Source of the DNA: Psammoneis japonica
Lineage: Eukaryota
Length of the DNA stretch: 26,105 bases
Direction of reading: 5' to 3'
Assembly (NCBI GenBank): GCA_008632985.1
Contig: QPGO01000185.1
Span: forward strand, 124,001 to 150,105
Made by a program: the position numbers and the translations under genes
The notes under the pieces: generated by a model
Told to the model about the DNA's origin: nothing
The model's database searches: none
The model's input: the letters and a program-made list of their open reading frames with translations, nothing else
Shown here: positions 3,300 to 24,890 of the stretch, piece after piece
Layout: each line of letters starts with the position of its first letter
How positions within the stretch are numbered: position 1 is the first letter of the stretch

Positions 3300-6200
3300 C
3301 TACGTCAATTCGAATCCAGCTCCCGACTCTATCGCATACAGCAGTCGTTCTCGCATTATCTTTTCGCTGCTGTAGGAAGGCAGCTTTAACGTGTTGAAGC
3401 ATGTACTGGCAGTCGGTAGCTTGTCACCGTCACTGATTATTCCCACCCTCTGGATCGTGAATGGGGGGTTCATGCTGGCAAACCCGAGAGGTGGTGGCCG
3501 TTCACAACTTGTCACAAAACGAAGGAGATCTGCCTGTTGCTTAGTAGAAAACGTCGAGACCACCTTCCAGAACCGATTGATGTTCCGATCAATCCCGGTG
3601 AAGCCAATATACCGCGTATTCGAGCGCATGTCTGCAATGTCAATTGTTCCGTCCGAAGACCCACTTATCAGTACCTGTAGCTCCGGTTCATTGAACAAAC
3701 ACAACCATTCTTTGTCGATCACATCCCACAAGCCTCTTGTAAACGCCTCTGACTGCTCCCTGAGACGATCACAGACATGATGTTTTGCGACAAGACCTGA
3801 CGAAAAGAAAGGCGAAAAGATGAATCATGATCGGGAAAAGAACATACGATACAAACATATCGAAGATATTACCGATGTATCGCTGTTTGTTTTCATTGGT
3901 GACCTCAACGTCCCCTCCCTTTGGAATTAGAGGAACCTCCACGGTCTTGCCAAAATCCGCAATAGCTACAGTAAATGTCAAAGACAAGTCTCTTGCATCG
4001 CCATCGTACGTTTTGAGAAACATCAAATTGTTGTAGAGTTGTGGGTCCATCGTACTGAGATCCGAAAGCATGTGAAGATAGTTGTAATCACCTCGGAGAA
4101 AGGAAAGAAAGACGTGAGCAAACTGTGGGTGAATGGTGATTCCTTCGTAAAGAGCTTTACCCAAGATGCGTCCGAGGAATTCAAACAGCGTTATGTGATC
4201 AGGGCCATGTGCTGCACTAGATGATGGATTTGGATACAGACAATTTCCGGCTCCCTCGGTGACTCGGAACAACGCATAGTTGGGGTCGAAAGCAAGCTCG
4301 CTCAGGTCAGTCCAGAATTCCTTGAACAAGCCTCCTGCATCAACACCAACTTCCTTTGCACCGGCTTCATTCACATATTGAACTATAATTCGCTGTCTGA
4401 GATTTCGGCCAAGCTTGTTCAGCGTAGCGAGGCCATCCTCGAGAACTCTTCCTCTAACAATGCGCACCGAAAGTCCGGGCTTCTGTGAGAAGAACTCAGC
4501 ACTACCTTGTACATTAAGCCGATTCGTCGCAACGATTCGTTCAAACAGCTTAAGCCTTCGCTTAAATGAAACAAGAAATGGGCAAACCCTGAGAACGGGG
4601 TTTGAAAGCAAAGCCACATATGACTCGTGACTTTTGCACCGCCGGATCTCTTTATCGAGCAAGTCGTTCACTATCCATAGTTTCGGTACACAAAGTGGCC
4701 GACGACTTGACCGATCATAAAGATCTCGCATTGTCCTTGACGACGACGATGTCAACGCAAGGCCGAAATAATTAGGAACCTGATTGGTCTTCGCGGCCGC
4801 TGACGAACCGATCGAGTCAGCGTAGCAGGCTTTCTTCAGAAGCTTCTTAAGAACGCGGATACAACGACGGAGCTGATGGAGTGGTAGAGGATTATCTAGC
4901 TCGTGTATCTCAACGTCGTCGGTTACGATGAGTACGTGTGACAACGATCTCACGAACAGGTACAAGAGAGCAGCACCACTTCCTTGCTCAGCTCGTCCCC
5001 TCTGACTGCACTCGGTGAATTTAGGCACGACATTTGTCGAGCTGACCAAGCTACCGTTTCAAAAGAAGACAGAAAGACTTTCAGAAAGGAGAAATCGAAA
5101 TAACAAGCGTCCACCCAAATACACGTACCTTTCATCAGAATCAATGAGAGCAAAAATGTCGGCCGCGATTGATTTATCAGACTGAATTATACCCCAAGAC
5201 GAGGACACGACGTTTGTTGAAAAACAGATTGCGTTTAAGAGGGAGAGGGTGCAAGGATCTGCCGACGGAGACACTTTGTCCTTCTGATACCTCTCGTTAC
5301 TTGATTTCCCAGACGAAAGCTTCGCAATGTCTTTGCCCCCTCCGCCCCATCGTGCCAACACGATGCCATACGTGCGAGCAAGTGCAACAAACAGATTTAG
5401 ACTGTAAGTCATGGGACGTGGTCTTTCCGCAGCAGCAGTGCTGACTTCCAATTTTGCATTCCTGCTTGCCGAAACGGCATCCGCTAACTGACGATCGAGT
5501 TTGCCGTCGCCACGAGCGAGCTTCAGAGATACAGACGAAGTATTCACCAATCCTTCTTTCGGTTGAGAATTGGGTTTTCGATTCACGTTATCTCCTGTAA
5601 GCATTTTACTCTAATTGACGGAGGTTAGGGTGAGGGTAGGGTTGATCATGATAGGTCATGGATGATGAATGGCATCAGATGTGGATAACGTACCATGCTG
5701 GTCGATAGCTTGCGGGCCCATTTGCTGCTTTGCCAGAATCCTTTTGTGCGGTCCATCTTTGCTTCTTTTGCTGCAAGGTTCGTGGCAGAAGCCGTACCAG
5801 CGTCGTTGAGGGCTTTTTCATCCTTCAAATCGCTGTCATTCTTCGTTGACAACACGCGATCTGTATCCAGTGAAATGTCGTCGATCGCCGCATTAAAAAG
5901 GTTTCGAACATATGAATCAACCAGCAAGAGCTTACACTGATCGATTATGACTGGAGATAGCACGATCGGTGAGTGGTGAGCTTTTCCGTCTGAAACCCAT
6001 TCCACTGACGTTTCTTTCGACGACAATGTTGAAAGCGGAACAACGTCAACCAATGTTGCAATCACGTTGAAAAACAACGAACCAGCTTCAAGAACAAAAT
6101 ACAGACGATACAGGATTGGTCAATAAATCTGAACAATTACCAACCTCCACGCAACAACAGCGGAGAGACAAAGAACTTACCTGTATAGTCAACTTTGGTC

Positions 6201-7633
6201 GGGTCCGAGCCATTGATCGAAGGACAAATTCTACCTATCTGTAACAAGTTGGCCAACATAACCTGCACGTTCACAGCAGGACTTCGTCGAATATCCAAGA
6301 CCGGCAATAGATGAGCGACCTCCCCCGTAGACAAGGCAGTCGAGTGCCGCGCAACAAATGACTGCAGTAGGCAAATGAATACCAAAGACCCGAAAGACGC
6401 TACTGGCTTGGTAGCAAAGCCAGAAGGGGCGACAGCAAGTAGCTTAGAGACAGAATCAGAGGTCACCTTCCATGAGAGTAAGGGGACTGTGAATATCTCA
6501 GCAACAAATCGGGACTGGAGAGCCTGGAAATCAGATGTTGAATGTCTGGTTAGCACTGCATCAAGGGTCAGCTGAAACAGCACATCTGCCCGCTCTCGTT
6601 CTTTTTGGGGAATACAAGCTTCTCTCATCCTTTCAGCGCTTGGTGGAATTGGATCAGAATGCCCAACATGAAAGAGTAGGTGATTCCGGAGTTCATGAAT
6701 CAAATCCAGAGATTTTCCGATGGCAAGGTTCTCCGGTTCCACACCCGTAGATCCGCCACTCTCCAATCTTTGTGTTTCGGGAAGAAACAGGGATCGACAC
6801 GGTCGGACGACATCATCAGACACCCCTCCGTTGAGACCAAGCACAGCACGCAAAAACGTTTGAACTGCCCCCAACGCGTCATTCGTAGCACCACGAGTAG
6901 TAGCAACGACTAGAGAGAACCGCAAAAGTCTCAGCAGACGGACTCGTCCGTCTGGGGAAGTCAGCCATGGAAGGATGGGGTCCAGATGACTATCCTTGTT
7001 CAGCAAGCCCGGCAAAAGAACATAGCTAAAGAGCTGATAGACAGTACGCATATCTTCTTCTCCTCGTAAACGAAATTCGTCAGTATCGCCTTTGCGCCCG
7101 AGGGGAATGGTTCTCGCGACGAAAAGTAGCTGCCTCACAAGGGCACTAGCGGTGGCAGGCGGTGGGACATAATCTGCCTGATTTCCAGCTTTCTTCAGCA
7201 AGGCTCGAAGAGTAACCAAGTCTGCAAGACACCTGTTCAGCACAGAACGCTGTTGCTCTTGCAGAATACGATTCGATCTGCGAGCCCGAAACAACGATTG
7301 AATGACAACGACGCAACGCTGCTGATGCTGAAGCTCTTGACGAAGCCGTCGTTTCTCCAGTGTGACCGCTACAGACGCTTTTTTAGACGTATCGGAAGGC
7401 AGAGATGACACAAACGGTGCAGCGGAGCCAGCGATACCATCAGAAGTAGGGGCACTTGCGATCTTCGAAGAACTCTCCGATGCTTTCTTTTCCGTCACTA
7501 CAGTTGCTGCGCCGACAGACCCTCTCTGGCTAGAGACGCTTTGTCGCTGACGCTCCTTAATCTGTCTTCTTCTTTCTTTTGCTCTGTCCTGTCTTTTCTT
7601 AGAAGCATTTCCCGAAAGCTCTTCAGCGAACAT
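3300..7633 (-). CDS. HECT E3 ubiquitin ligase with N-terminal IQ motif (UBE3B/UBE3C, UPL6/7-like). Exons 7633-6181, 6085-5694, 5610-5129, 5050-3873, 3796-3300
   Basis: IQ-like VIQSLFRARRSNR. HECT motifs GVDAGGLFKEF, FEFLGRILGKALYEGI, LLRFVTSCERPPPLGF, catalytic LPTASTCFNTLKLP and terminal GAGFELT. Four phase-consistent GT-AG introns. Confidence 0.93.
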
Positions 7634-8358: not shown

Positions 8359-11300
8359 CTATTGATACCCGTTCATACTCCTCTGAAGCCAGTCGTACGT
8401 CGACGTGCCCCAGCTGCTCACTGTGGATGCCGAAAGACAAACGCACGTCAGAATGTGTGAAGTTGGAGTCGAAAAACATGGCGCCAGCAAATCTGAGCCA
8501 GGATATCATACTTACATGCTCCGTTGACGAGCTCCATTACAAAGCTTTTCTGTTCCACAGAATTGGGCTGACCTCGCATGGCCAACCTCGATCTCACGTC
8601 ATTCGCAATCGACCTCGCTTCATCGGGATCCCGAGTAAGATTCAAGACCGCCCCTTCTACCAAGCTTACAATCTCTTCGACATGGGACGCTGCACAGGCA
8701 AAAGCAATTTCAAACATTTTACAGAATTGAACGCCGAGTCCACCGTCGTTCACATTCCAGCCTCCAAGTACGTCCCAAAATTCGGCACTCATTTTGAATG
8801 GCGCTCTCTCACTGAATAAAGGTACCTTACTCATCTTTGGTGTATCACCCAGAACGAAACCAAAGTCAATATGCATGAGATGCCCTTCTCTATCGATCAA
8901 AATGTTTGCATTGTGTCTGTCTTTGATTTGCAAAACGTAGGAAACAAGGCTGTATCCAACAAGCGAACGAAGAAAGTTATCCTGGGCAACTTCAAACGTC
9001 ACAGTTTTGTCGCCCATCGTTGCTCCGTCTTGAATATTATTTGGGGGCCGCGGTGCGTGACGTTGTTGTGGAGGCGCATTCCGCATCATAGGTTGAGAAA
9101 GTCTGGGAAGCCGGGTAGGTGATCCGTAGGCGCGCTCAAAATAGTCACGGAGCGACACAAAGCCGTCTGTTAGCTTCTTTACTTCGTCCACGCTTTTTGC
9201 GTCGTTGATGCATTCCAACAGTCCGGCATCACCACCAACGCACATGATTCTGTACGGACGCAGGAATGGGCGACTATGCTCAGGGATATCTGACTGAAAC
9301 CATTCATTCATTTTTGTGATAAGTTGCATGACCAGCGCCTCGCGACGAATATCTTCCCCAGCTTTCGTTATGAAGGATGCCATTCTCCACCCAGTCACGT
9401 TTCCGTATGGAGATGCTTGTCGTACCTGCTTACATTTTTCCGACCAGGGAACTCCAAAAATTCTGTCTAGCAACGCCGCTTTCATTGTGAGCTGCGGTCT
9501 GGGAGGCCAACAAGGAACACGAACTATGTTAGCCAACATATTTTCAACATAAACGAGAGCAAGCGCCAATGAGGAGACGATGAAACATACCTTTGTGCAC
9601 TGGACTGCTGCCAACCACTGGTAAGATAGGGTCGATGCTGTTGGAAACTCATTTGTTGATGGAGCTGCTCGTACTCCTGCTGCCTCACAATATCATATGG
9701 ATTCGTGTACATGTAGTCAGAAGCCCCGGAATTGTAGAAAGCCTCGTCATCGGCCCACCCACCCCGTACGCTATTTCTGTCCGAAATGCTCATTGAGCCG
9801 GGGGCGTCGCCGGCGTCGTTTTCCGCTTCATTGTCAACGTCAATGACAGTCCGTGGAGACACTGGGATTGCACTTGCACGCCGTTCTTTCGTAGCGGGTG
9901 CCGCCATCAGCTCAGAAGGAATCTGACAGCCGGGAAACCCGGTGTAAGGCGTATTGGAATCCTCATCAACAGCTGATGCATCGGAAACCATTCCTAGCGC
10001 CTCTTCTATTGTTGTGCCAAGGTCTCGACTGCCACCCGCGTATAGTCTAGCGTCGCTGCCATCGAGTCCTGTTTCAGCCAGTTCCAACTGTATCAGATAC
10101 GGGCAACGTTCGCGAGAAGCAAGGATTCGACATTCAGAGACGACAATATTTAGCACTCTCATGACACCAGCTCTACCCAGAGTGTCGTCGGAGCCTTCTG
10201 GTGTAGACTCATCGTCTCCCGTATGAAATGGGCACTAACAGTTCATCGGACAAGAGAAGATTGTAAGCTAAATCGGGAACAAGGAGACAAGAGCCACGCT
10301 GTGAAATTCTTGTTCCTTACCAAAGGTTCGAGTGGGAGATGAACGGAATATTTCAACATGTCGACAGTCAAGTCCGACACTTCTGGCCAGTCATATGGAC
10401 CTCTATTGTCTTCGACATCAAGACTGACGTCTCCAGCGGTTACCATTCGTCTCCGTAGACGACGATTCATTTCAGCTAATGCTTCTGCCAGGTAGGTCTA
10501 AACGAAAAAGTAATAATGCAGATAAGTTAGAGAAAAAGGACTAGACGAGAGCAATTGTCATGTAAAAAGGACTTTACCTCTCTCTGCAGATTTGGAACCA
10601 AGCGTAAATCTAGAGAGATTTGTGTAAGTCGATCAATAAAATGCATCGTGTCTCCAAAATGACTACATCGACGCATGCTCAGGCTGGACGGCAGTCTCGG
10701 CGGTGACGGTTCTGCATCGTACATTGCTGGATGATCCATATCTGGCAACAAGTAGCCATAAGCTGTAGCCTGTTCGGCATCCTGTAGCAAATGAAAAGCG
10801 CCCTGTTTCTCCATGCCAATCTTGGCCAACGCTACTGCTCTTTCGGCGGGCAAGACCACAATTAATCTCTTTCCCGTTTGTTGTCGGTGCTCAAAGAGAG
10901 TTTTCCATGCCCTGCCAACCTCAGCCTCAAGCAGCCAGCACAGATCAATCCCAAAGCTAGCATCCTGTAGACATCTTGTCAATATCAGTCGGCGGAGTTT
11001 CCGTATTGGATCCAAGCCTTGCACCTGTGTGAGTGCAGGTGGCGAATGCAACACGGCAGACACAATCTGAGGCAAGTACTCCCGTAGCTGCAACACCATA
11101 TGTTGCGCTTCTTTTGCTTCCTTTGCCATTGCACCAGTTGTTTCCTCTATTCTATCATTTTCACTTTGAGTCGGCATCGGTTCTTCCCCTAGAGACTCCG
11201 GTATCTTCTGAGAAGGCGGAACAACATCGGTGCCGTCCTCGGATATGACCAACGTGGCTTCCTCTTCAGAGCGTTGTTCCTCTAAATCATTCATGGTGTC

Positions 11301-12151: not shown

Positions 12152-12577
12152 CGCTATCCGGTATTGAACAATACCAATATATATATTTGTACTCATAAAC
12201 ATCTATTTTCCCAACGACTATGCGTCGAAAAGTGCAACGATTTCAAATTTCCAGTACCGATTTCTAGTAGAAAATCTCGTAGAAATGCTCACAGAGGATT
12301 TCTTCCCGCCTTTTGTTCGCAATGCTCAACCGTCAAAAACACACACGTCGGTGCGATTTCTGAAGATCGGACGAGAAGGTGTGTTATCAAGTCAACCAAG
12401 AGCAGTGACGTTTCAGCAGCTAGAGACGAGACTTACAGGACATCAGCTGATAGCGTTCGTTGCTGGAGAGGTCGGGTATTAGTTTGCTTCGAGTTTCGGT
12501 CTCTTCGATAAGGCTCCAGAGTGATCATTGCACGAAACTCGAAGAGTCACGTACCGCAACAGCACTTTTCGAAAGGT

Positions 12578-14835
12578 ATGACGCCCATGAAGGCTGCTCG
12601 TGGCGCTGTTTTTCCTACTTATGACGAAGGAGAGACCGAGGACGATAAAGTAGAGTCCTTATCGCCACCTCGGACAAGCAGTAAGCTCCACCTCAGCAGT
12701 CGCTTGTTTGACGACGATTTTGAAGCTGAAGGCGAAGCACACCGTCGCTTCAAGCACAAGCTCAACAAAGACGATAGCTTCATCAGTGACATCAGTGGCG
12801 ACAGTTCTCCGGTATTGCGTACAGTTGATATGAACATAACGACCTCTCCATCGTCTCACAGTCGCAAGCGTCCGAGCGATCAGCGGCCTGCGGGGCGAGA
12901 AGATACCGGTATGTTTGATGATGATGACGACGGTATGTTTCTTGCATCGCCTCGCAGCTCCCAATCAGGGAGCTCTCCGACCTTTCGTACTCTCGATGGC
13001 AGGACAGTCACCTCCAAGAACCCCTTTTCGCCGTATACGCCCATGACGGAAGAGGAGACGGCCACTTCAGAGCAGATCGTGATTCAAGATGCTGCACCGT
13101 CCTTCCCACTTTCGTTCTACAGCAGGAACAACGCTCTTCGTTTGATTATAGCGATGTATCCGACTCAAGCAAGAGCACCTCGCTCAGTAGGAAGCCCGCT
13201 GCTGCACCTCGACAGTCCAAAATACATCTGCAGAGACGCGAATCAAAGCCTAGCGTGACGTGGGGAAAGAGCTCGACTGAACCTCACGGATATCCTGCTC
13301 GCCATGGTCAGTACTCCTTTACAGGCTCTCCCATTGAAGAAATTGATATTGCCGAAAAGGACTGTACCTCTGGTATGGGTCGCAAGATTCGCAAACTCTG
13401 CCTTGAAGACCGACCCACCGCCAAGGCTGAATCGGAACGTCCTGTGCAGCTCTTTGTGGACACCGATGAAAAGTCTTTTAAGGAGGATGAAATCAGCCCG
13501 ACTGACGTTTTGAGCTTCCCAGCTTCTCCGTCACAAATTAAACGGGCAAACCGATACACTCCAGTACGTCCACAACAGCCCGAGACGCCAATGACGAAAC
13601 GACGGGGTCTTGCTCGTGCTTCCTCGTCCTTTGATGACGATGATAGCAAGACGTCCTTTTCTCAACAGAAATCAAGGTTCGGGGAGGACTTTGATGTCAT
13701 TAGCCAGCTCGGAAATGGATCGTTTGGAACTGTCTACAAGTGTCTCTCGAGATTGGACGGCTGCATGTACGCTGTCAAGGCGGCAAAAAGGAAAGCCAAG
13801 GGTAAATCTGATCGAGACAGAATGCTAAAAGAAGTAAGTACTCCTCGCGAGTGGCCCGAAACAAGAGTATTCGTTACTGGTAACGTTCTCACGTTTGCGT
13901 TCTTTTGAACCACAGGTTTATGCTCTTGCGGCCTTGTCTGACCAAGCCGACACAGCCGCGTTCCATATTGTTCGGTACCATCAGGCTTGGATGGAGGAGA
14001 ATCGATTGTACATTCAGACCGAGCTCTGCACATCCACCCTCTTTGCTGAAATGAATCGTGGCGTCATGGACGAAGAACGTCGTTATAAGCTACTCCGTGA
14101 GATGTTGCTTGCCTTGGAGCTCATTCATAAGAATGGAATGGTTCATTTGGATATCAAAGTAAGTTTGCATACGCCAGCGGTTTAGTCAGGACCACTCTTA
14201 ACGTTGTATTGCTCACCGCGCCGCTCCATCGTTGTTCCTTTCTGTAGCCTGAGAACATCTTCATAAAGACCGATCAATTTAAGCTAGGGGACTTCGGATT
14301 AGTGAGCACAATATCGAATCGCGACGTCGAGGAAGGCGACTCCCGATACATGAGTATGGAATTGCTTTCTGGAGATACTAACGACCTTACGAAGGTACTA
14401 TAAAACTCTCTTGTCGCTCTCTTGATTTGCACGGATTGAACTCACGCATTCCTTCTCCCGTTTACACAGAGTGACGTGTTTTCCTTGGGTGTGACTCTAT
14501 ACGAGATTTGCATTGGCAGACCTCTCCCAATGGACGGGCAAGAATGGCAGGACATTCGCGCTGGCGTTTTCTCCCCTTTTCAAAACACACCCAAGGAAAT
14601 GGAAGCTATCGTCAAGCATATGATGAGTCCGGAGCCGAATGCTCGGCCCAGTGCTTCGGCTCTTCTGAAGCGAAGGCAGTTGCTGAGCAAGGAACAAAAG
14701 CAACTTATGGAAGAACGAAGCAAAGTTCTGGAGGCTAATCGGGCGCTGGCTCTGCAAACTCAAATGATGCAGAAAGTCCCTGCGCCAGGCAAAGGTCGGC
14801 TGATGCGTGCCAATACTTGGAACGGGACATTCTAA
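12578..14835 (+). CDS. WEE1: Wee1-family protein kinase. Exons 12578-13833 (frame break near 13115), 13916-14158, 14248-14394, 14470-14835
   Basis: SRFGEDF, LGNGSFGTVYKCLSRLDGCMYAVK, VRYHQAWMEENRLYIQTELC, HLDIKPENIF, KLGDFG, the Wee1 signature EEGDSRYM, and SDVFSLG. N-terminus is S/P-rich with KNPFSP. Confidence 0.92.
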
Positions 14836-19253: not shown

Positions 19254-22200
19254 TCATGTTTCTTCCTCGACAAGAAAACCTTTACACCGTTCCCGCTCTG
19301 TCAAATCGACGACTTCCAGCGCTCCATCAGTACCGCCCACTGCCAGGTAGTTTCCGCCCGATTCATCAAATGACGGCATCCATCTAACTCGTCGCATTGA
19401 GTTAGAACCCAGGTTTCGGCGCAGTTGTACCGAGCACACGATGCCTTGTCTCTGCCAGTTGTAATCCATCTCGTTTACTGCCCATCCCGACCGCAAGTAT
19501 CCCAAGTCTAGAACGGAGACAGTCCCATCACCAATAGCAACGGCCATAATTCCATCGCTATTCCAGTCAATATCATACACAACCCCAGCACGCGGAATTT
19601 CTAATACCGTTTCCCATGTTTCCTCTTGAGTTCGAACCTCAATCACAGTTACTTTCCGTCCTTCGCCACCGTATGCCAAGTATTGTAATCCATTTAGATC
19701 CATCGGTGCCCATGCAAGAGCTAGGCCAACTTCTTCGATCGGGAGTGAAAATATAATACGCCAATGACCAACTAAAACGTTGCTCGTGTCGTAGATGGTG
19801 AGAGTCTGATTTTCTCCTATTGTCGCCAACCAAGTTCCGTCAGGCGACCACGAGTTTGCGATAGTTCGACCATTTCTCCACTCTCGTACGCAAGAAAAAT
19901 CATCTGCAACATCGAGAATCCGAGTTGTGCTTCCGCCGACAGCTACAAAGTTGCTGTCTCCATCAATCGACAAAGACTGAATATCCTCTTGAAATCGAAT
20001 CACTTTGCGGACGGAAAATCCGAAAGTATTGGAAGGGCTCTCGCATGCATTCATAGGAGCGACTTTCCGAGAACAACGAGCGATCTTCTGCTGCAAACAA
20101 TTACAAATTCCCCACAGGTACTCCATTCGATAGATTGTGAGCCTCCCTCTGCTAGAACCATTTCGTAACAGGTATCAAATGTTGGTTCCGACATTCTGTA
20201 GAAGGAGACAATACCAGAGTCGTTTCCGACGGCAGCCACAAGCCGATCGGGAGAAAAAGCCACAGAGGAGATTGGTGCAGTGCTTCTTAGACAGAACCCA
20301 GTCATGAGGCGAGCATCAGTCGTTTCAATCGCCTGAACACTGTTATTCTGTCCGGTAAGAACCAAGAACTGGTCCTCAGGATGCCACCTAGCTGAAAGAG
20401 GGACCAAGCCTTTGAGCTCGACCTTCATTACAGCCTCCCAGTTTTCAAGTGCGGAAAGAATCGTCACCTCTGAAGCGACACCGCCGACGGCAATGTGTGA
20501 ACCAGAGTGCGACGAGCTGATGAATTGAACCCATCGCTCTCGTGGGATCCTCGCAATGATTTCCCAACAGGTGGTGTCCACCACAGTTACAGCCAAATCT
20601 TCCCCACCTGCGTACAAGCACTTCGCATCAGGTGACCATTCGACGGTGAGAACCGAATCTTCCAGCACAAACTTTGCAACTCGTGAAACAGCAGATGGGG
20701 TGTTCTGTGCTTCTTCGTAGCTATATACTGCTAGCTTTCCGCTTCGATCTCCAATTGCGATTAAATCTCCTCCCGGACTGAAGCAAACCGCGTTGGCCCA
20801 GTCAACGCGTGCAATTGTGTGCAGGATCTTGCTATCTATTCGTCGACCTCGACCAGGTGGATTACCACCATCGTCGTTCGTGGCGTCAACCTTGACGATT
20901 AAACATTTATCTTCTCGACTTCCGATTGCCAGTAGGTCTGAATTTGGTTTCCAATGAAGCGACCCTACAAATCCAGTCTCTTTTATCGTATGTACAACGG
21001 GATAGGGTTCGTAAGGCGCAAGAATTGACACGGTTTTCCCAGTTCCACCAACAGCAATAAAGTGCGAACCCCACGCAATGGCACGAATTGAGCCCATCGA
21101 ATCTTTCCTTGTCGTGCTATTGATTCGTCTATCGTACTTGACTCTCCAAACAGTTGAGCCCGACGTCTCGACAACAGCAAGGTGATGGTTCTCTGTTGCG
21201 ATTGCAAGGCACTTCCCATCGGGTGACCACGCCGTGCACCAAGTCCAATCACCCCGTACGATTTCGTGAACAATAATCGTTCGAGACTGTTCTAGCAGAT
21301 AGCCATCCCATTGATCCTGATTGTCTTCTTCTGCTTCATCATGGCACAGACAGGTACTTCTGCTCGCTGCGATATCCATGATGGCATTCGTGGATCAACA
21401 CTCGAGAACATGGCGTCGTTGGTTTGAGAACAACTCGGTGACTTGGTACTTCCAGTGAAAAAATTTGAAGCCTTGATGAGCATTCCTTCATAGTGGCCTG
21501 CACTTCCATCAGCCAAAGAGTCAACAATCGAATGCTCTGGCTGAACTGCAGTGCTTCCCCATATGTAACCGAGAAGGCCCGTTGGAGTATTGGGTGGATT
21601 TTGCCATTCTTTTTTGAACGTAGGCTCTATTCCATCAATCTTATTCAGCATCACATCTCTACTTATATTAGGCGAAGATGATAGCTTTGATGGAAGGTGA
21701 GCGACGGCCGTTTCAAAGTCGTCTGAGGAAATAATGCTGATGTTTGGAGACGTGAAATGCTCCTCCTCATCATCTTTCTCTGTCGGTTTTTCGCTCACAG
21801 TCGGACTTTCTTCTTGCTCACTTATCCCAGGAACCGACAGTACTTCGCCTGCGAGTTGCAAAACCTCATCAGTCGACCTCATTTCAGCATTATTGTTTGC
21901 TTTTTCTCGAAGGGCATCTTTAATAATTTTCTCTGTGCGTTTGTCTCGATAGCCTACCCGAGCGTCAGAGACTGATATAGCATTCCGAGCTTCCTGAATA
22001 ATTTCATCATATAACAGTTCCTGTGACTCCCATTCCGCTTCGTCTCCGCCCGCCTGCTGAGAAGTCGTATCGTTCTGGAAAGTTTCGTCATTATTTGCTT
22101 CCGTCATCGTCATAGGCTTTTGCACATCCGTTTGCCTCTCGTTCAGTTTTCTACTTTTCCCATCATCTTGTTCAATACGGTCTTCTACGTCAAACGAGTC

Positions 22201-22257
22201 GCATGATAGTGACAAAGATTTTATAAACCCCCCCAACCCAAAGAGGTCCGACGACAT
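19254..22257 (-). CDS. Large WD40-repeat protein with acidic low-complexity N-terminus; two -1 frame breaks (~21350, ~20065)
   Basis: ORFs 21292..22257, 20051..21379 and 19254..20126 overlap in successive frames. Many WD-like units: CTAWSPDGKCLAIA, AVCFSPGGDLIAIGD, VEWSPDAKCLYAGGED, SVAFSPD, SWSPDGTWLA. Confidence 0.8.
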
Positions 22258-22679
22258 GCTATCTCATGGCCATGTCCTAGCAAAGTGCGGAGTGCATTGG
22301 TGCGTTTGTCGGCGAGAGGGTGCGATCGGATTGTTGGTACAAATTTTACGTAGCATTCCACGTAACCTTACTGCACAAACCTTCATCCCCTTTCGACCCG
22401 TCCGTCGACCGTACTGTACATATTTTCCTTTGACTGGCATCGGCGCTCCTGGGAATTGCGGCTGAACTCATGAGCATTATTGACTCTAACTTGCATCTCA
22501 ACCATTACGATGAGAGGTGGAGTGAGCAAGTCCGGCACTCGATAGCTGAGAGGGCATAGGGCGACCCTAGTAGAGGGAGAGCATTTTCTAGTTTTCTAGC
22601 GCTAGCCGAGTACTTTTCCGGTATGTCAAATACGGCTGCTCTGTAGCTACTGGCATTTTGCAAATCGGTTCCCCTGACT

Positions 22680-23362
22680 TTAGCATGATTCAAGTTCTTT
22701 CATTATAGCCACGCCGTTCGATGTTCCTATTCGATTTGCACCCGCCGCTATCATGTTCTTGACATCAGCAAGGCTGCGAATACCTCCAGATGCCTTGACA
22801 CCTAATTTGCTTCCCATTGTCTCGCGCATCAATTGCACGTCCGCCGCTGTCGCTCCCGCAGATCCAAAGCCTGTGGATGTCTTGACGAAATCTACCCCGG
22901 CGTCTCGACAGATGTTACAGGCTTGGATCTTTTGTTCGTCAGTTAGGTAGCAAGTTTCCAAAATCACTTGCAAATCACACCACCAGTCCCGTCTTCTCCC
23001 TTGCACGCTTGAACCAATTGTTCGATCTCACTCCTGATGTAGTCGTGGTTGCCGTTCTGCAGTTCAAACACGTTGAGGACCATGTCGACTTCGGTAGCAC
23101 CGTGTTGAATTGCATCTTTGACTTCGTAGATCTTTACATTAGACGTACTCTGTCCTAACGGGAACCCAATGGCTGCCCCAACACGAACGTCAGTGCCTGC
23201 AAGTATCTCCGCACAGCGCTGGACTTGAGCGGGATTGACAGCTACCATGGCAAAGCCGTAGTGGGCAGCTTCTTGACAGAGTTGTTCAATATCTTTAGGT
23301 TCTCCGTGAGGTTTCAGATATGTATGGTCAATCATTTTGGCTAGAGTCTTTGGGTTCAGCAT
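22680..23362 (-). CDS. deoC: Deoxyribose-phosphate aldolase (DERA) domain, probably the C-terminal part of a PfkB-DeoC fusion; frame break at ~22968
   Basis: [36 protein letters not shown], Schiff-base [26 protein letters not shown]. Intronless. Confidence 0.92.
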
Positions 23363-24554
23363 AGCTTCAGGTGCGTCGGTCGTTGGAGTCCGCTCTGCAC
23401 ACGCTGGATAAAACTTTCCACCATTTCTTTGGTCGGAAGAGCGGGAATAGCACCGGGTTTGGTACAGGTGAGACCAGCAACGACATTCGCATAGTCCAAG
23501 GCATCTTGTACCACTGCTTTTCGATGGATTTGAAGGATCCACCGAGTCTTTGAAATTCTGGAAGCAGTCGTGATATCATGGCAGCCATAAATGAATCACC
23601 CGCACCCGTAGTTTCCACAACTTGGATATCCTTTAGCGCCGGGCTTTCAATGAGGAAGTCACCGGTGCAAGCCAACGCCCCTCCTTCTCCTCGGCTAAGT
23701 ACCACTAGCTCCACGCCCTGATCCAACACAGCCTGAATTCCTTTCTCAATGTCGTCGTGACCCGTCACAAAGCTAAATTCTTCTTCACTAATCTTTGCTA
23801 AACTGGCGTAACGAAATCCGTCAAAGATTGTGCGTCGCGCCGTGGCCTCATCTGGCCAAAGAGTCGGACGATAGTTGGGGTCGTATGTCACCATGAGATT
23901 TTTTTCTTTCGCTTGCTGCAAAAGTCTACGTTGTGCGGAAGCACCGGGTTCATCAATCAACGTGATGGATCCACAGTGAACACATTGAGCAGACTCAAAC
24001 ATGTCCATGGAAATTTCCGTCTCGAGCAACGATCGATCGGCGCCTCGATAAAAGCACATGTCTTTTCTACCATCGTCCCACACCGAAACAAAGACAATTG
24101 TTGTCTGTTCGTCATCATCGACGAGCAATCCTGAGGTATCGACGTGCGCTTGATTCAACGTTGTGCGCAACTTGACACCAAACGGATCGTTGCCGACTTT
24201 TCCAACAAAGGCACTCTGGAACGAGCCCAACCTTTGAACACCGACCGCCACATTAGCCGGAGCCCCACCTGGAGCACATGTAAAGGAGGACACGTCGGGA
24301 AGATTGACGTTGGATTCTTCAGCCACAAAATCAATCAAGAGTTCTCCAATGCAGACAACCTTTACAGCCTCTGATGAATCTTGCATTCGAAGAAGAAAAG
24401 CAGAATCCGAGTGTCGGAGGCAGTTACGACGAGAGAAGCGTGGCTGCTGGAAGCTATGGCATACAAAAGAAAGCGAAAGAATCAAGCTCCATAGCAGCCG
24501 AAGGAGCATCATTGAGGTGGATGAACCCGTCATCGTCATTCGGCGTCGTCGCAT
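23356..24554 (-). CDS. PfkB-family carbohydrate kinase (fructokinase-like) with bipartite plastid presequence; start probably 24512; frame break at ~23520
   Basis: CIGELLIDF, PGGAPANVA, VGKVGNDPFG, YDPNYRPTLW, KISEEE, VETTGAGDSF. After one restored base it continues DALDYANVVAGLTCTKPGAIPALPTKEMV. N-terminus MMLLRLLWSLILSLSFVCHS|FQQPRFSRR. Confidence 0.88.
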
Positions 24555-24890
24555 CGCCCATCATGGTGCTATTTCGTCTGATTTTGATTTTTTGTATTTT
24601 TTTAGACGACAAAAACGACATTTCCGTCGAAAAAAAGAAAACCAGGCAAAATACAATGGCTATCCAGCAGTTCCTCACATCCAGCCACGGTTACATAATA
24701 AGTAGGATTTGTACAGTAGAATTCGTTGAAACATACTGTACGACGTCAGCAAGAACATGTGTCTGGTATGCATCCTACATAACACATACAGTACATACTA
24801 CCGTAGGGCTATTGCACCCAATCGACGGACGCCTTCCGTTTTGTTTCGCGGTTCTCGCCATTAGCGAGCGGCGTAGCATCAGTCACTTTC

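Follow-up and report, generated by a model that had tools for sequence, protein, structure and literature searches.

In the 26,105-nucleotide stretch of Psammoneis japonica DNA analysed here (contig QPGO01000185.1, positions 124,001 to 150,105; hereafter the window), positions 22680..24554 of the minus strand encode a PfkB-family sugar kinase fused to a deoxyribose-phosphate aldolase (DERA, the DeoC protein). We are highly confident that this is one fused gene and that it is real. To explain its existence, we propose horizontal acquisition of a bacterial pfkB-deoC pair and its conversion into a single reading frame, with the fusion occurring either after the transfer or earlier, in an unsampled bacterial donor. 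The resulting protein of ~625 residues would comprise, in this order, a presequence, a fructokinase-like PfkB kinase, ~17 residues of flexible linker and a DERA of the short type. The two domains may catalyse consecutive steps of a small catabolic route, in which the kinase would transfer phosphate to a furanose at its terminal hydroxyl (most likely to O5 of 2-deoxy-D-ribose) and the DERA would split what the kinase makes into glyceraldehyde 3-phosphate and acetaldehyde. At least one isoform may be directed to a complex plastid by the presequence. Taken as a whole, we consider this the best explanation of the data, with moderate confidence. The gene is laid out as follows:

22680..24554, minus strand: whole PfkB kinase-DERA fusion coding region, intronless, ~625 codons after three 1-base repairs
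24453..24554, minus strand: signal-peptide-like N-terminus, residues 1-34 (from the residue pattern)
24363..24452, minus strand: transit-peptide-like stretch, residues 35-64 (from the residue pattern)
23395..24362, minus strand: PfkB kinase domain, fructokinase-like subfamily (from Pfam and NCBIfam profiles and structure alignment)
23345..23394, minus strand: inter-domain linker, ~17 residues, rich in Thr, Pro and Ala
22683..23344, minus strand: DeoC (DERA) domain, short bacterial type (from profiles and alignment to solved DERAs)
22682-22680, minus strand: stop codon TAA of the fusion gene
23513..23514: frame break 1, in the C-terminal part of the kinase, one base lost
23393..23394: frame break 2, where kinase and DeoC meet, one base lost
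22966..22967: frame break 3, inside DeoC, one base lost
24454..24564, minus strand: upstream ATG-ATG (24564 and 24561) in another frame, opening a 36-codon overlapping frame

The kinase frame has its first ATG at 24554, and the DeoC coding region follows with no intergenic space. As assembled, the gene is distributed over four open reading frames (ORFs; 23367-24554, 23356-23514, 22964-23542 and 22680-23006), and a TGA at 23358-23356 overlaps an ATG at 23362-23360 in the sequence ATGCTGA. The coordinates given in the first-pass annotation of this stretch, including those of this overlap, agree exactly with the ORF listing and the sequence. That annotation favoured a fusion with one missing base near the junction, and named an operon-like overlap of two cistrons as the alternative. 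We compared 22600-24700 with read contigs of two sequencing runs on DNA of this organism (X1 and X2), which contain 86% and 75%, respectively, of the sampled words of this stretch. Relative to the read contigs, the window lacks one base at exactly three sites; each extra base restores the frame, and every read contig that bridges a break has the restoring base. At break 1, the extra base is a C behind 23513 (X1, depth 48.7/48.7) or a T behind 23514 (X2, 25/25), the two versions being single contigs of X1 and X2; both insertions give a Val codon following a Gln codon, so that the difference is synonymous. At break 2, there is an extra G behind 23393 at full depth (X1 48.7/48.7, X2 25/25), and its loss from the window generates the false TGA at 23358-23356 and the overlap with the ATG. 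A base is indeed missing at the junction, but the read contigs put it 4 nt from the ~23389 proposed earlier, which alters two linker residues, and there are three breaks rather than one. At break 3, a C behind 22966 or a T behind 22967 encodes the same residue, with one version per allelic contig and two bridging contigs in each run. The four in-frame pieces (24554-23514, 23511-23395, 23392-22967 and 22964-22683, of 347, 39, 142 and 94 residues) can be joined with an X at each break without any internal stop. The read contigs are free of indels from 23666 to 24653, so that nothing needs changing in the assembled N-terminal region. Behind 22991, an in-frame insertion of 3 bases is present on one allele; the loop affected varies in homologues. 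The three frame breaks are assembly errors, and the read contigs give a continuous frame over the junction.

Two other accounts of the locus are affected directly by these data. Two cistrons with an operon-like ATGCTGA overlap are what the assembled sequence spells out, and overlapping or closely abutting pfkB and deoC genes do occur in bacterial relatives; however, the base behind 23393, present at full depth in both runs, removes the stop, homologues are continuous over the junction, and a downstream overlapping cistron is normally not translated from a eukaryotic nuclear gene. The operon-like overlap is thus refuted for the window gene in favour of the fusion, while an operon-like layout does describe its bacterial relatives, in which pfkB and deoC are separate genes; overall, we regard the two-cistron account as very improbable. 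Only slightly more credence can be given to a decaying pseudogene with three real frameshifts, as the presence of three breaks within 1.9 kb of assembled sequence might suggest. The restoring base is found in every bridging read contig, and in both alleles where two are seen; the catalytic motifs of both domains are intact; and similar breaks in other conserved genes of the window, such as that for a HECT protein, point to the assembly rather than the fusion gene. In addition, the 24 single-base variants between the window and the read contigs in the coding region change 23 codons, 15 of them synonymously and eight non-synonymously in the repaired frames, whereas 30% synonymous changes would be expected for this sequence and its mix of transitions and transversions (binomial P 5e-4). 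Given this synonymous excess, both halves are under purifying selection, which fits neither a pseudogene nor two cistrons.

By profile and structure-based alignment, the aldolase half is a bona fide short-type DERA. PF01791 (DeoC) matches both of the later ORFs, and each piece on its own passes the cut-off of TIGR00126 (deoC; 117.3 bits), with 129.3 bits over profile positions 2-116 and 134.2 bits over positions 119-210. A full-length alignment can be made to the solved DERAs 5dbu, 3r12, 8qps and 3ngj (E down to 4e-29), in which the motifs EVDMV, FVKTSTG and GVKASGG are kept column for column. We take FVKTSTG, GVKASGG and EVDMV to hold the Schiff-base lysine, the second lysine and the aspartate, respectively (K167, K201 and D102 in E. 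coli). The E. coli-type DERA chains 1jcl, 1ktn and 6z9i match one DeoC piece only, with E ~2e-6, the other piece falling outside the 1e-5 limit.

For the kinase half, PF00294 (PfkB) matches the 395-residue ORF with E 6.8e-58 (196.8 bits against a gathering threshold of 25.8; covering positions 3-270 of the 302 in the profile), and the next frame piece contains the remainder of the C-terminal part. The GGAPAN sugar site, the DPNYR arginine and the GAGD catalytic aspartate are all kept. The nearest solved structures are the fructokinases of Vibrio cholerae (5ey7, E 7e-41) and Halothermothrix orenii (3hj6), and GGAPAN and TTGAGD align with G45, A46, N49 and D266 of chain 5ey7_A. Among NCBIfam models, the top two are those for fructokinase (NF006957, 179.7 bits against a cut-off of 450, scored on an ORF that lacks the last ~40 kinase residues owing to break 1) and for the IolC N-terminal domain (TIGR04382, 5-dehydro-2-deoxygluconokinase, 181.4 bits against a cut-off of 300), both far below their cut-offs; the fusion models NF041633 (KHG/KDPG aldolase with sugar kinase; 69 bits, cut-off 700) and NF047869 (IolC/IolJ; 103.2 bits, cut-off 600) match the kinase part only, below threshold. 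These scores, the solved relatives and the pocket residues agree with the earlier assessment, made from motifs, that the kinase is fructokinase-like and not ribokinase-like. They also raise the possibility that, within a genuine fused protein, the kinase is a conventional fructose-6-kinase or has a different ketose or deoxy-sugar as its substrate, in which case the protein would not be a deoxyribose salvage unit and the DERA would use substrate from other routes or cleave some other phosphorylated product. We consider this unlikely, although it deserves to be taken seriously: the best-scoring models and nearest structures all point this way, and the hydrogen-bonding residues of the fructose site of the V. 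cholerae enzyme are kept. On the other hand, the distance of both models from their cut-offs speaks against such an assignment, as do the replacements of F113 by Met and of E110 by Arg at two lid positions relative to the Vibrio enzyme. Moreover, no DERA is known to cleave fructose 6-phosphate.

The search for related architectures that the first-pass annotation proposed does find PfkB-DeoC fusions in metagenomic data. PF00294 and PF01791 occur together in seven of the 120 best matches to the kinase ORF (metagenomic proteins of 570-669 residues, 58-62% identity) and in 11 of the 120 best matches to the DeoC part of one fused homologue, P0014 (proteins of 323-1029 residues), and two shorter kinase matches (P0001 and P0008) extend into the start of DeoC. 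The architecture is rare, with five of the 150 best matches spanning both domains in one match in a search of 1.84 billion representatives. In the protein atlas, no cluster with at least 50 members has PfkB and DeoC together, the nearest being fusions of PfkB with PF01081, and a scan of metagenome contigs revealed no fused locus among the best 80 matches listed. Two further loci are not fused either: L085 is a bacterial pair of separate genes, and L114 pairs deoC with a ribokinase-type gene in the opposite order. The latter (L114:4876-7815, from a gut metagenome) encodes a LacI-type regulator, deoC and a ribokinase-type kinase, i.e. the classical order, the reverse of that in Chloroflexota. 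Between PALP in the kinase and MIDHT in DeoC, there are 33 residues in the window protein and 26-41 in the homologues, with unrelated sequences. An AlphaFold model of P0014 (mean predicted local distance difference test (pLDDT) score 78.7, predicted template modelling score 0.57) shows two folded domains connected by a low-confidence linker, with pLDDT <50 at residues 344-352.

Other kinase-aldolase fusions are of different types. In P0369 (538 residues) and P0492 (a 294-residue fragment), a ribokinase-type kinase with a GGKGANQ motif is fused to DeoC, and P0354 (562 residues) is a fructokinase-like kinase-DeoC fusion that has the bacterial form of the FYR..AD motif and looks bacterial. These three proteins, which are among the five matches that span both domains, suggest, from their sequence types, that fusions of sugar kinases and DERAs arose independently. 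Many DeoC-search proteins of 400-560 residues (e.g. P0121, P0122, P0135, P0153 and P0185) have an N-terminal part outside Pfam families, and other DeoC proteins are joined to RpiB/LacAB (PF02502), NUDIX (PF00293) or a flavoprotein domain (PF02441); DERA thus seems to be a frequent fusion partner.

An important question is where the two halves come from. The kinase half shares 69% identity with P0002 and P0003, two stand-alone proteins, and 54-64% with kinases of Chloroflexota (Aggregatilineales, Anaerolineae, Caldilineaceae and Roseiflexus) and of a few Brocadiia and Desulfobacterales. Of the bacterial loci compared, 37 encode a kinase with at least 53% identity (five of them have a downstream flank of <900 nt), and 10 of these 37 also have a deoC whose product shares 58-64% identity with the P0014 DeoC part. 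In nine of those 10, deoC is a separate gene directly downstream on the same strand; the two genes overlap by 4-14 nt or are 3-9 nt apart in seven of the nine; of the other two, L022 has an ambiguous deoC start and L053 an ambiguous kinase frame. In L003, a single HEAT-repeat ORF lies between pfkB and deoC, and in L017 a deoC of a distant type is ~500 nt away. By comparison, deoC is absent from all 43 loci whose kinases are more distant. The confinement of deoC linkage to this kinase subfamily, together with the fusion itself, favours consecutive steps over a fructokinase that merely shares a polypeptide with DERA. In L053 (positions 5839-6970, an actinomycete metagenome-assembled genome), the kinase is split into ORFs 5839-6486 and 6452-6970 and the downstream deoC is intact, reflecting either a decayed kinase or a sequencing error.

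Phylogenetic trees of the two domains, as called for by the first-pass annotation, place both among bacterial-type sequences. The kinase tree (113 rows, IQ-TREE quick search, midpoint root) includes 22 stand-alone metagenomic matches and was built without L053 and L059 (too short) and P0126 (short kinase part). In this tree, the window sequence, 12 fused homologues and mg_P0010 form one clade with a Shimodaira-Hasegawa-like approximate likelihood ratio test (SH-aLRT) value of 100, nested within Chloroflexota sequences in a starred set with P0002-P0005 and P0021; the next sets contain L001, with an adjacent deoC, L002, and L003/L009 (Aggregatilineales and Anaerolineae). A two-residue deletion, giving the motif FYRGAD, is present in 12 of the 13 fused rows and in P0010, whereas the FYR..AD motif has its 8-residue form, longer by two, at 60 of the 78 bacterial loci and in 21 of the 22 metagenomic kinases that stand alone. 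In the DeoC tree (67 rows, including 44 representatives at 78% identity from 227 candidates; quick search, midpoint root), the fused rows and all 10 kinase-adjacent bacterial deoC sequences fall into one clade (SH-aLRT 99). With the kinase nested in a Chloroflexota clade and the aldolase of the short DERA type, both halves are bacterial-type and do not cluster with ordinary eukaryotic enzymes, in line with the horizontal acquisition that the first-pass annotation had thought possible. An origin in a bacterial pfkB-deoC gene pair is very likely on these comparisons, and transfer of the pair followed by fusion is the likely course of events.

The gene itself resides in eukaryotic nuclear DNA, as is clear from the surrounding eukaryotic-type ORFs, the even GC content and the presence of two alleles. 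HECT, PI3/PI4-kinase, protein-kinase and WD40 ORFs share the window with the fusion gene, the PI3/PI4-kinase ORF has an atlas match labelled 'Eukaryota', and GC ranges only from 0.46 to 0.54 along the window. The gene is probably algal. Identities of about 58-65% of both halves to Chloroflexota genes could also be explained by a bacterial contaminant or a chimeric assembly join, but we deem this the most improbable of all accounts. Besides the flanking ORFs on the same contig, the uniform GC and the two alleles, as in a diploid nuclear locus, the 65-residue presequence has no counterpart in the bacterial relatives, the two-residue stretch of 60 of the 78 bacterial relatives is missing, and one read contig extends from inside the gene to 24653.

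The 65 residues that precede the kinase core in the window protein could represent a plastid-targeting presequence. Residues 1-34 have an Arg-rich start and a hydrophobic stretch (best 12-residue Kyte-Doolittle mean 2.27, residues 20-31), and the small residues C and S occupy positions -3 and -1 of a cleavage site assumed after residue 34. With that assumption, Phe is at +1, and the first 20 transit residues contain 4 Arg, 1 His, 3 Ser and 1 Asp and have a net positive charge. The criteria for bipartite presequences, as far as the available part of PMC4329603 gives them, are Phe at +1 (or more broadly F/W/Y/L), hydroxylated residues, few acidic residues and a charge that is positive overall. 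The residue pattern therefore fits the signal peptide and Phe-starting transit peptide that the first-pass annotation had described, given cleavage after residue 34. P0006 and P0010 likewise have a hydrophobic stretch, a small residue and a Phe. By contrast, P0014, P0020, P0009 and P0001 start at the kinase core, and P0016 and P0018 have a short non-hydrophobic extension. Plastid targeting is thus a possibility that we put forward tentatively.

What could the fused enzyme do? It is probable that both domains belong to one pathway, because of the fusion itself, the subfamily-specific coupling to deoC in bacteria and the independent ribokinase-type PfkB-DeoC fusions. For the sugar that the kinase uses, our best guess, and a cautious one, is deoxyribose. 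2-Deoxyribofuranose resembles fructofuranose minus the C1 hydroxymethyl group and the C3 hydroxyl, so that a fructokinase-type pocket could have been retuned to deoxyribose. Conversion of deoxyribose to deoxyribose 5-phosphate and on to glyceraldehyde 3-phosphate and acetaldehyde would be the most economical route, and may be the one used, although we do not hold this with confidence. The most far-reaching version of the proposal is that an alga took up a Chloroflexota-like pfkB-deoC pair, fused it and added a presequence, to give a bifunctional plastid enzyme with a 2-deoxyribose kinase of a non-DeoK lineage; in this complete form it is rather unlikely. Were it true, deoxyribose released by the turnover of DNA or deoxynucleosides would be converted in the plastid to glyceraldehyde 3-phosphate and acetaldehyde, and the uncharacterised Chloroflexota pair would have the same function. 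The recycling of ribose in plant plastids, described in the portion of PMC12589546 available to us, offers an analogy for deoxyribose use in a plastid.

Several observations weigh against parts of this proposal. First, the kinase pocket looks like that of a true fructokinase. The accessible part of PMC6240065 lists D26, D30, G45, A46, N49, R176, D266, F113 and F115 as the fructose-contacting residues of V. cholerae fructokinase; six of these nine (G45, A46, N49, R176, D266 and F115) are identical in the alignment to 5ey7, D30 is kept according to the alignment to 3hj6 (GELLID stretch), D26 is read as Glu by manual offset, and F113 is Met. A pocket kept to this degree does not by itself fix the substrate. 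Ribokinase and deoxyribokinase models do not pass, with 94.7 bits for TIGR02152 (ribokinase; cut-off 299.65) and 60.7 bits for NF008353 (cut-off 341). Second, only about a third of the close bacterial kinases adjoin deoC. No family recurs in the flanks of the 10 bacterial pairs, among the 35 of 95 neighbouring ORFs that were scanned, and those 35 include no nucleoside phosphorylase, phosphopentomutase or sugar transporter; since the flanks are otherwise unconserved, they provide no further clue to the pathway. Third, both trees come from a quick search only. In the DeoC tree the fused rows group weakly (SH-aLRT 82), and a Parabacteroides-type deoC (P0237, 97% identical to P0265) sits within the clade of fused and kinase-adjacent sequences, so that the DeoC half alone cannot name the donor phylum. 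The eukaryotic nature of the fused clade is supported for the window sequence only.

With regard to targeting, an N-terminal extension is lacking in four of the seven fused homologues checked that are complete or nearly so, and two out-of-frame ATGs lie 7 and 10 nt upstream of Met1. This ATG-ATG pair has an A at -3, the 36-codon frame that it opens ends before Met58 (24383), and the sequence of the stretch is confirmed by two read contigs without gaps. Depending on where transcription starts, translation could begin at Met58 and produce an isoform without the presequence. Finally, X1 and X2 come from one sample, which may be the source of the window itself, and therefore test the assembler rather than the organism.

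The loss of single bases is unlikely to be restricted to the fusion gene. The HECT ubiquitin-ligase gene (3300-5058, minus strand) is split, with HECT profile positions 3-151 of 306 in ORF 3769-5058 and the remainder of the domain in another frame, in ORF 3300-3824; this looks like a single-base assembly error, with a short intron as a possibility. The WD40 gene is spread over three overlapping ORFs (19254-22257, minus strand), and both the PI3/PI4-kinase ORF (8448-10162, minus strand) and the protein-kinase ORF (12521-13908, plus strand) overlap an upstream partner ORF. The same-strand overlaps in these three genes range from a few to ~90 nt, and probably reflect further dropped bases. Positions 22600-24700 are heterozygous, with two contig versions, 28 single-base differences (mutual or relative to the window) and an in-frame indel of 3 bases. 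Of the three bases dropped from the fusion gene, two sit where the two contig versions differ in base, which suggests that the consensus step fails at heterozygous positions. An assembly that loses single bases in this way means that other 'frameshifted' genes of the window, and probably of the whole genome, should not be called pseudogenes without a read check.

In the literature searched, we found no report of a PfkB-DeoC fusion, the supplements of gene-transfer surveys, which might list the gene, not being covered, and nothing on DERA in diatoms. The gene pair, its unfused bacterial relatives and a possible new deoxyribokinase lineage are likewise not described there; already known are proteins in which a kinase is fused to the aldolase that acts next, fused metabolic enzymes in diatoms, and algal genomes that contain bacterial genes. 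The window gene provides a clean example of a bacterial gene pair that became a eukaryotic fusion gene, in which the unfused relatives are visible and a two-residue deletion marks the fused clade. It also provides a testable function for an uncharacterised kinase subfamily that is paired with deoC in Chloroflexota. If deoxyribose is the substrate, deoxyribokinases would have arisen a second time, from a fructokinase, and an alga would have a salvage step for deoxyribose.

How does the fusion compare with characterised systems? The nearest large clusters of the protein atlas (scores 0.88-0.89) are bacterial fusions of 2-keto-3-deoxygluconate (KDG) kinase with 2-keto-3-deoxy-6-phosphogluconate/2-keto-4-hydroxyglutarate (KDPG-KHG) aldolase (PfkB with PF01081; NF041633), proteins of 570-587 residues that likewise combine a kinase with the aldolase of the next step. 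They differ in being bacterial and in having PF01081 rather than PF01791 as the aldolase, and in NF041633, to judge by the profile positions that were matched (236-438), the kinase is in the second half, unlike in the window. Within eukaryotes, the Phaeodactylum tricornutum fusions TIM-GAPC3, UGP/PGM and G6PDH/6PGDH are each encoded by one nuclear ORF and, in the accessible text of PMC2173943, resemble the window gene in joining consecutive enzymes via a short spacer (8-25 residues) and in that at least one is imported into an organelle as a unit. They comprise other enzymes and, as far as that text goes, have no bacterial gene-pair origin; the words 'fructokinase', 'deoxyribose', 'pfkB' and 'ribokinase' are absent from its main text in the form available. 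V. cholerae fructokinase (5ey7/5eyn; PMC6240065, accessible part) is the best solved relative of the kinase but stands alone, without an aldolase partner. The deoK/rbsK-deoC loci and the P0369 and P0492 fusions share with the window the coupling of a PfkB kinase to DERA. The ribokinase-type kinases of P0369 and P0492 have GGKGANQ, whereas the window kinase has GGAPAN and matches ribokinase weakly, so that, if it is a deoxyribokinase, it belongs to a separate lineage. Closest of all are the Chloroflexota pairs (L001 from Aggregatilineales, L014 and L037 from Anaerolineales, and L015 from Anaerolineae), whose function is uncharacterised in the literature searched. They have the same kinase subfamily (54-64% identity to the window), the same type of deoC (58-64% identity to the P0014 DeoC part), the same kinase-then-aldolase order and the same relative strand, but consist of two genes with their own starts and stops, have neither presequence nor linker, and retain the two extra residues in FYR..AD.

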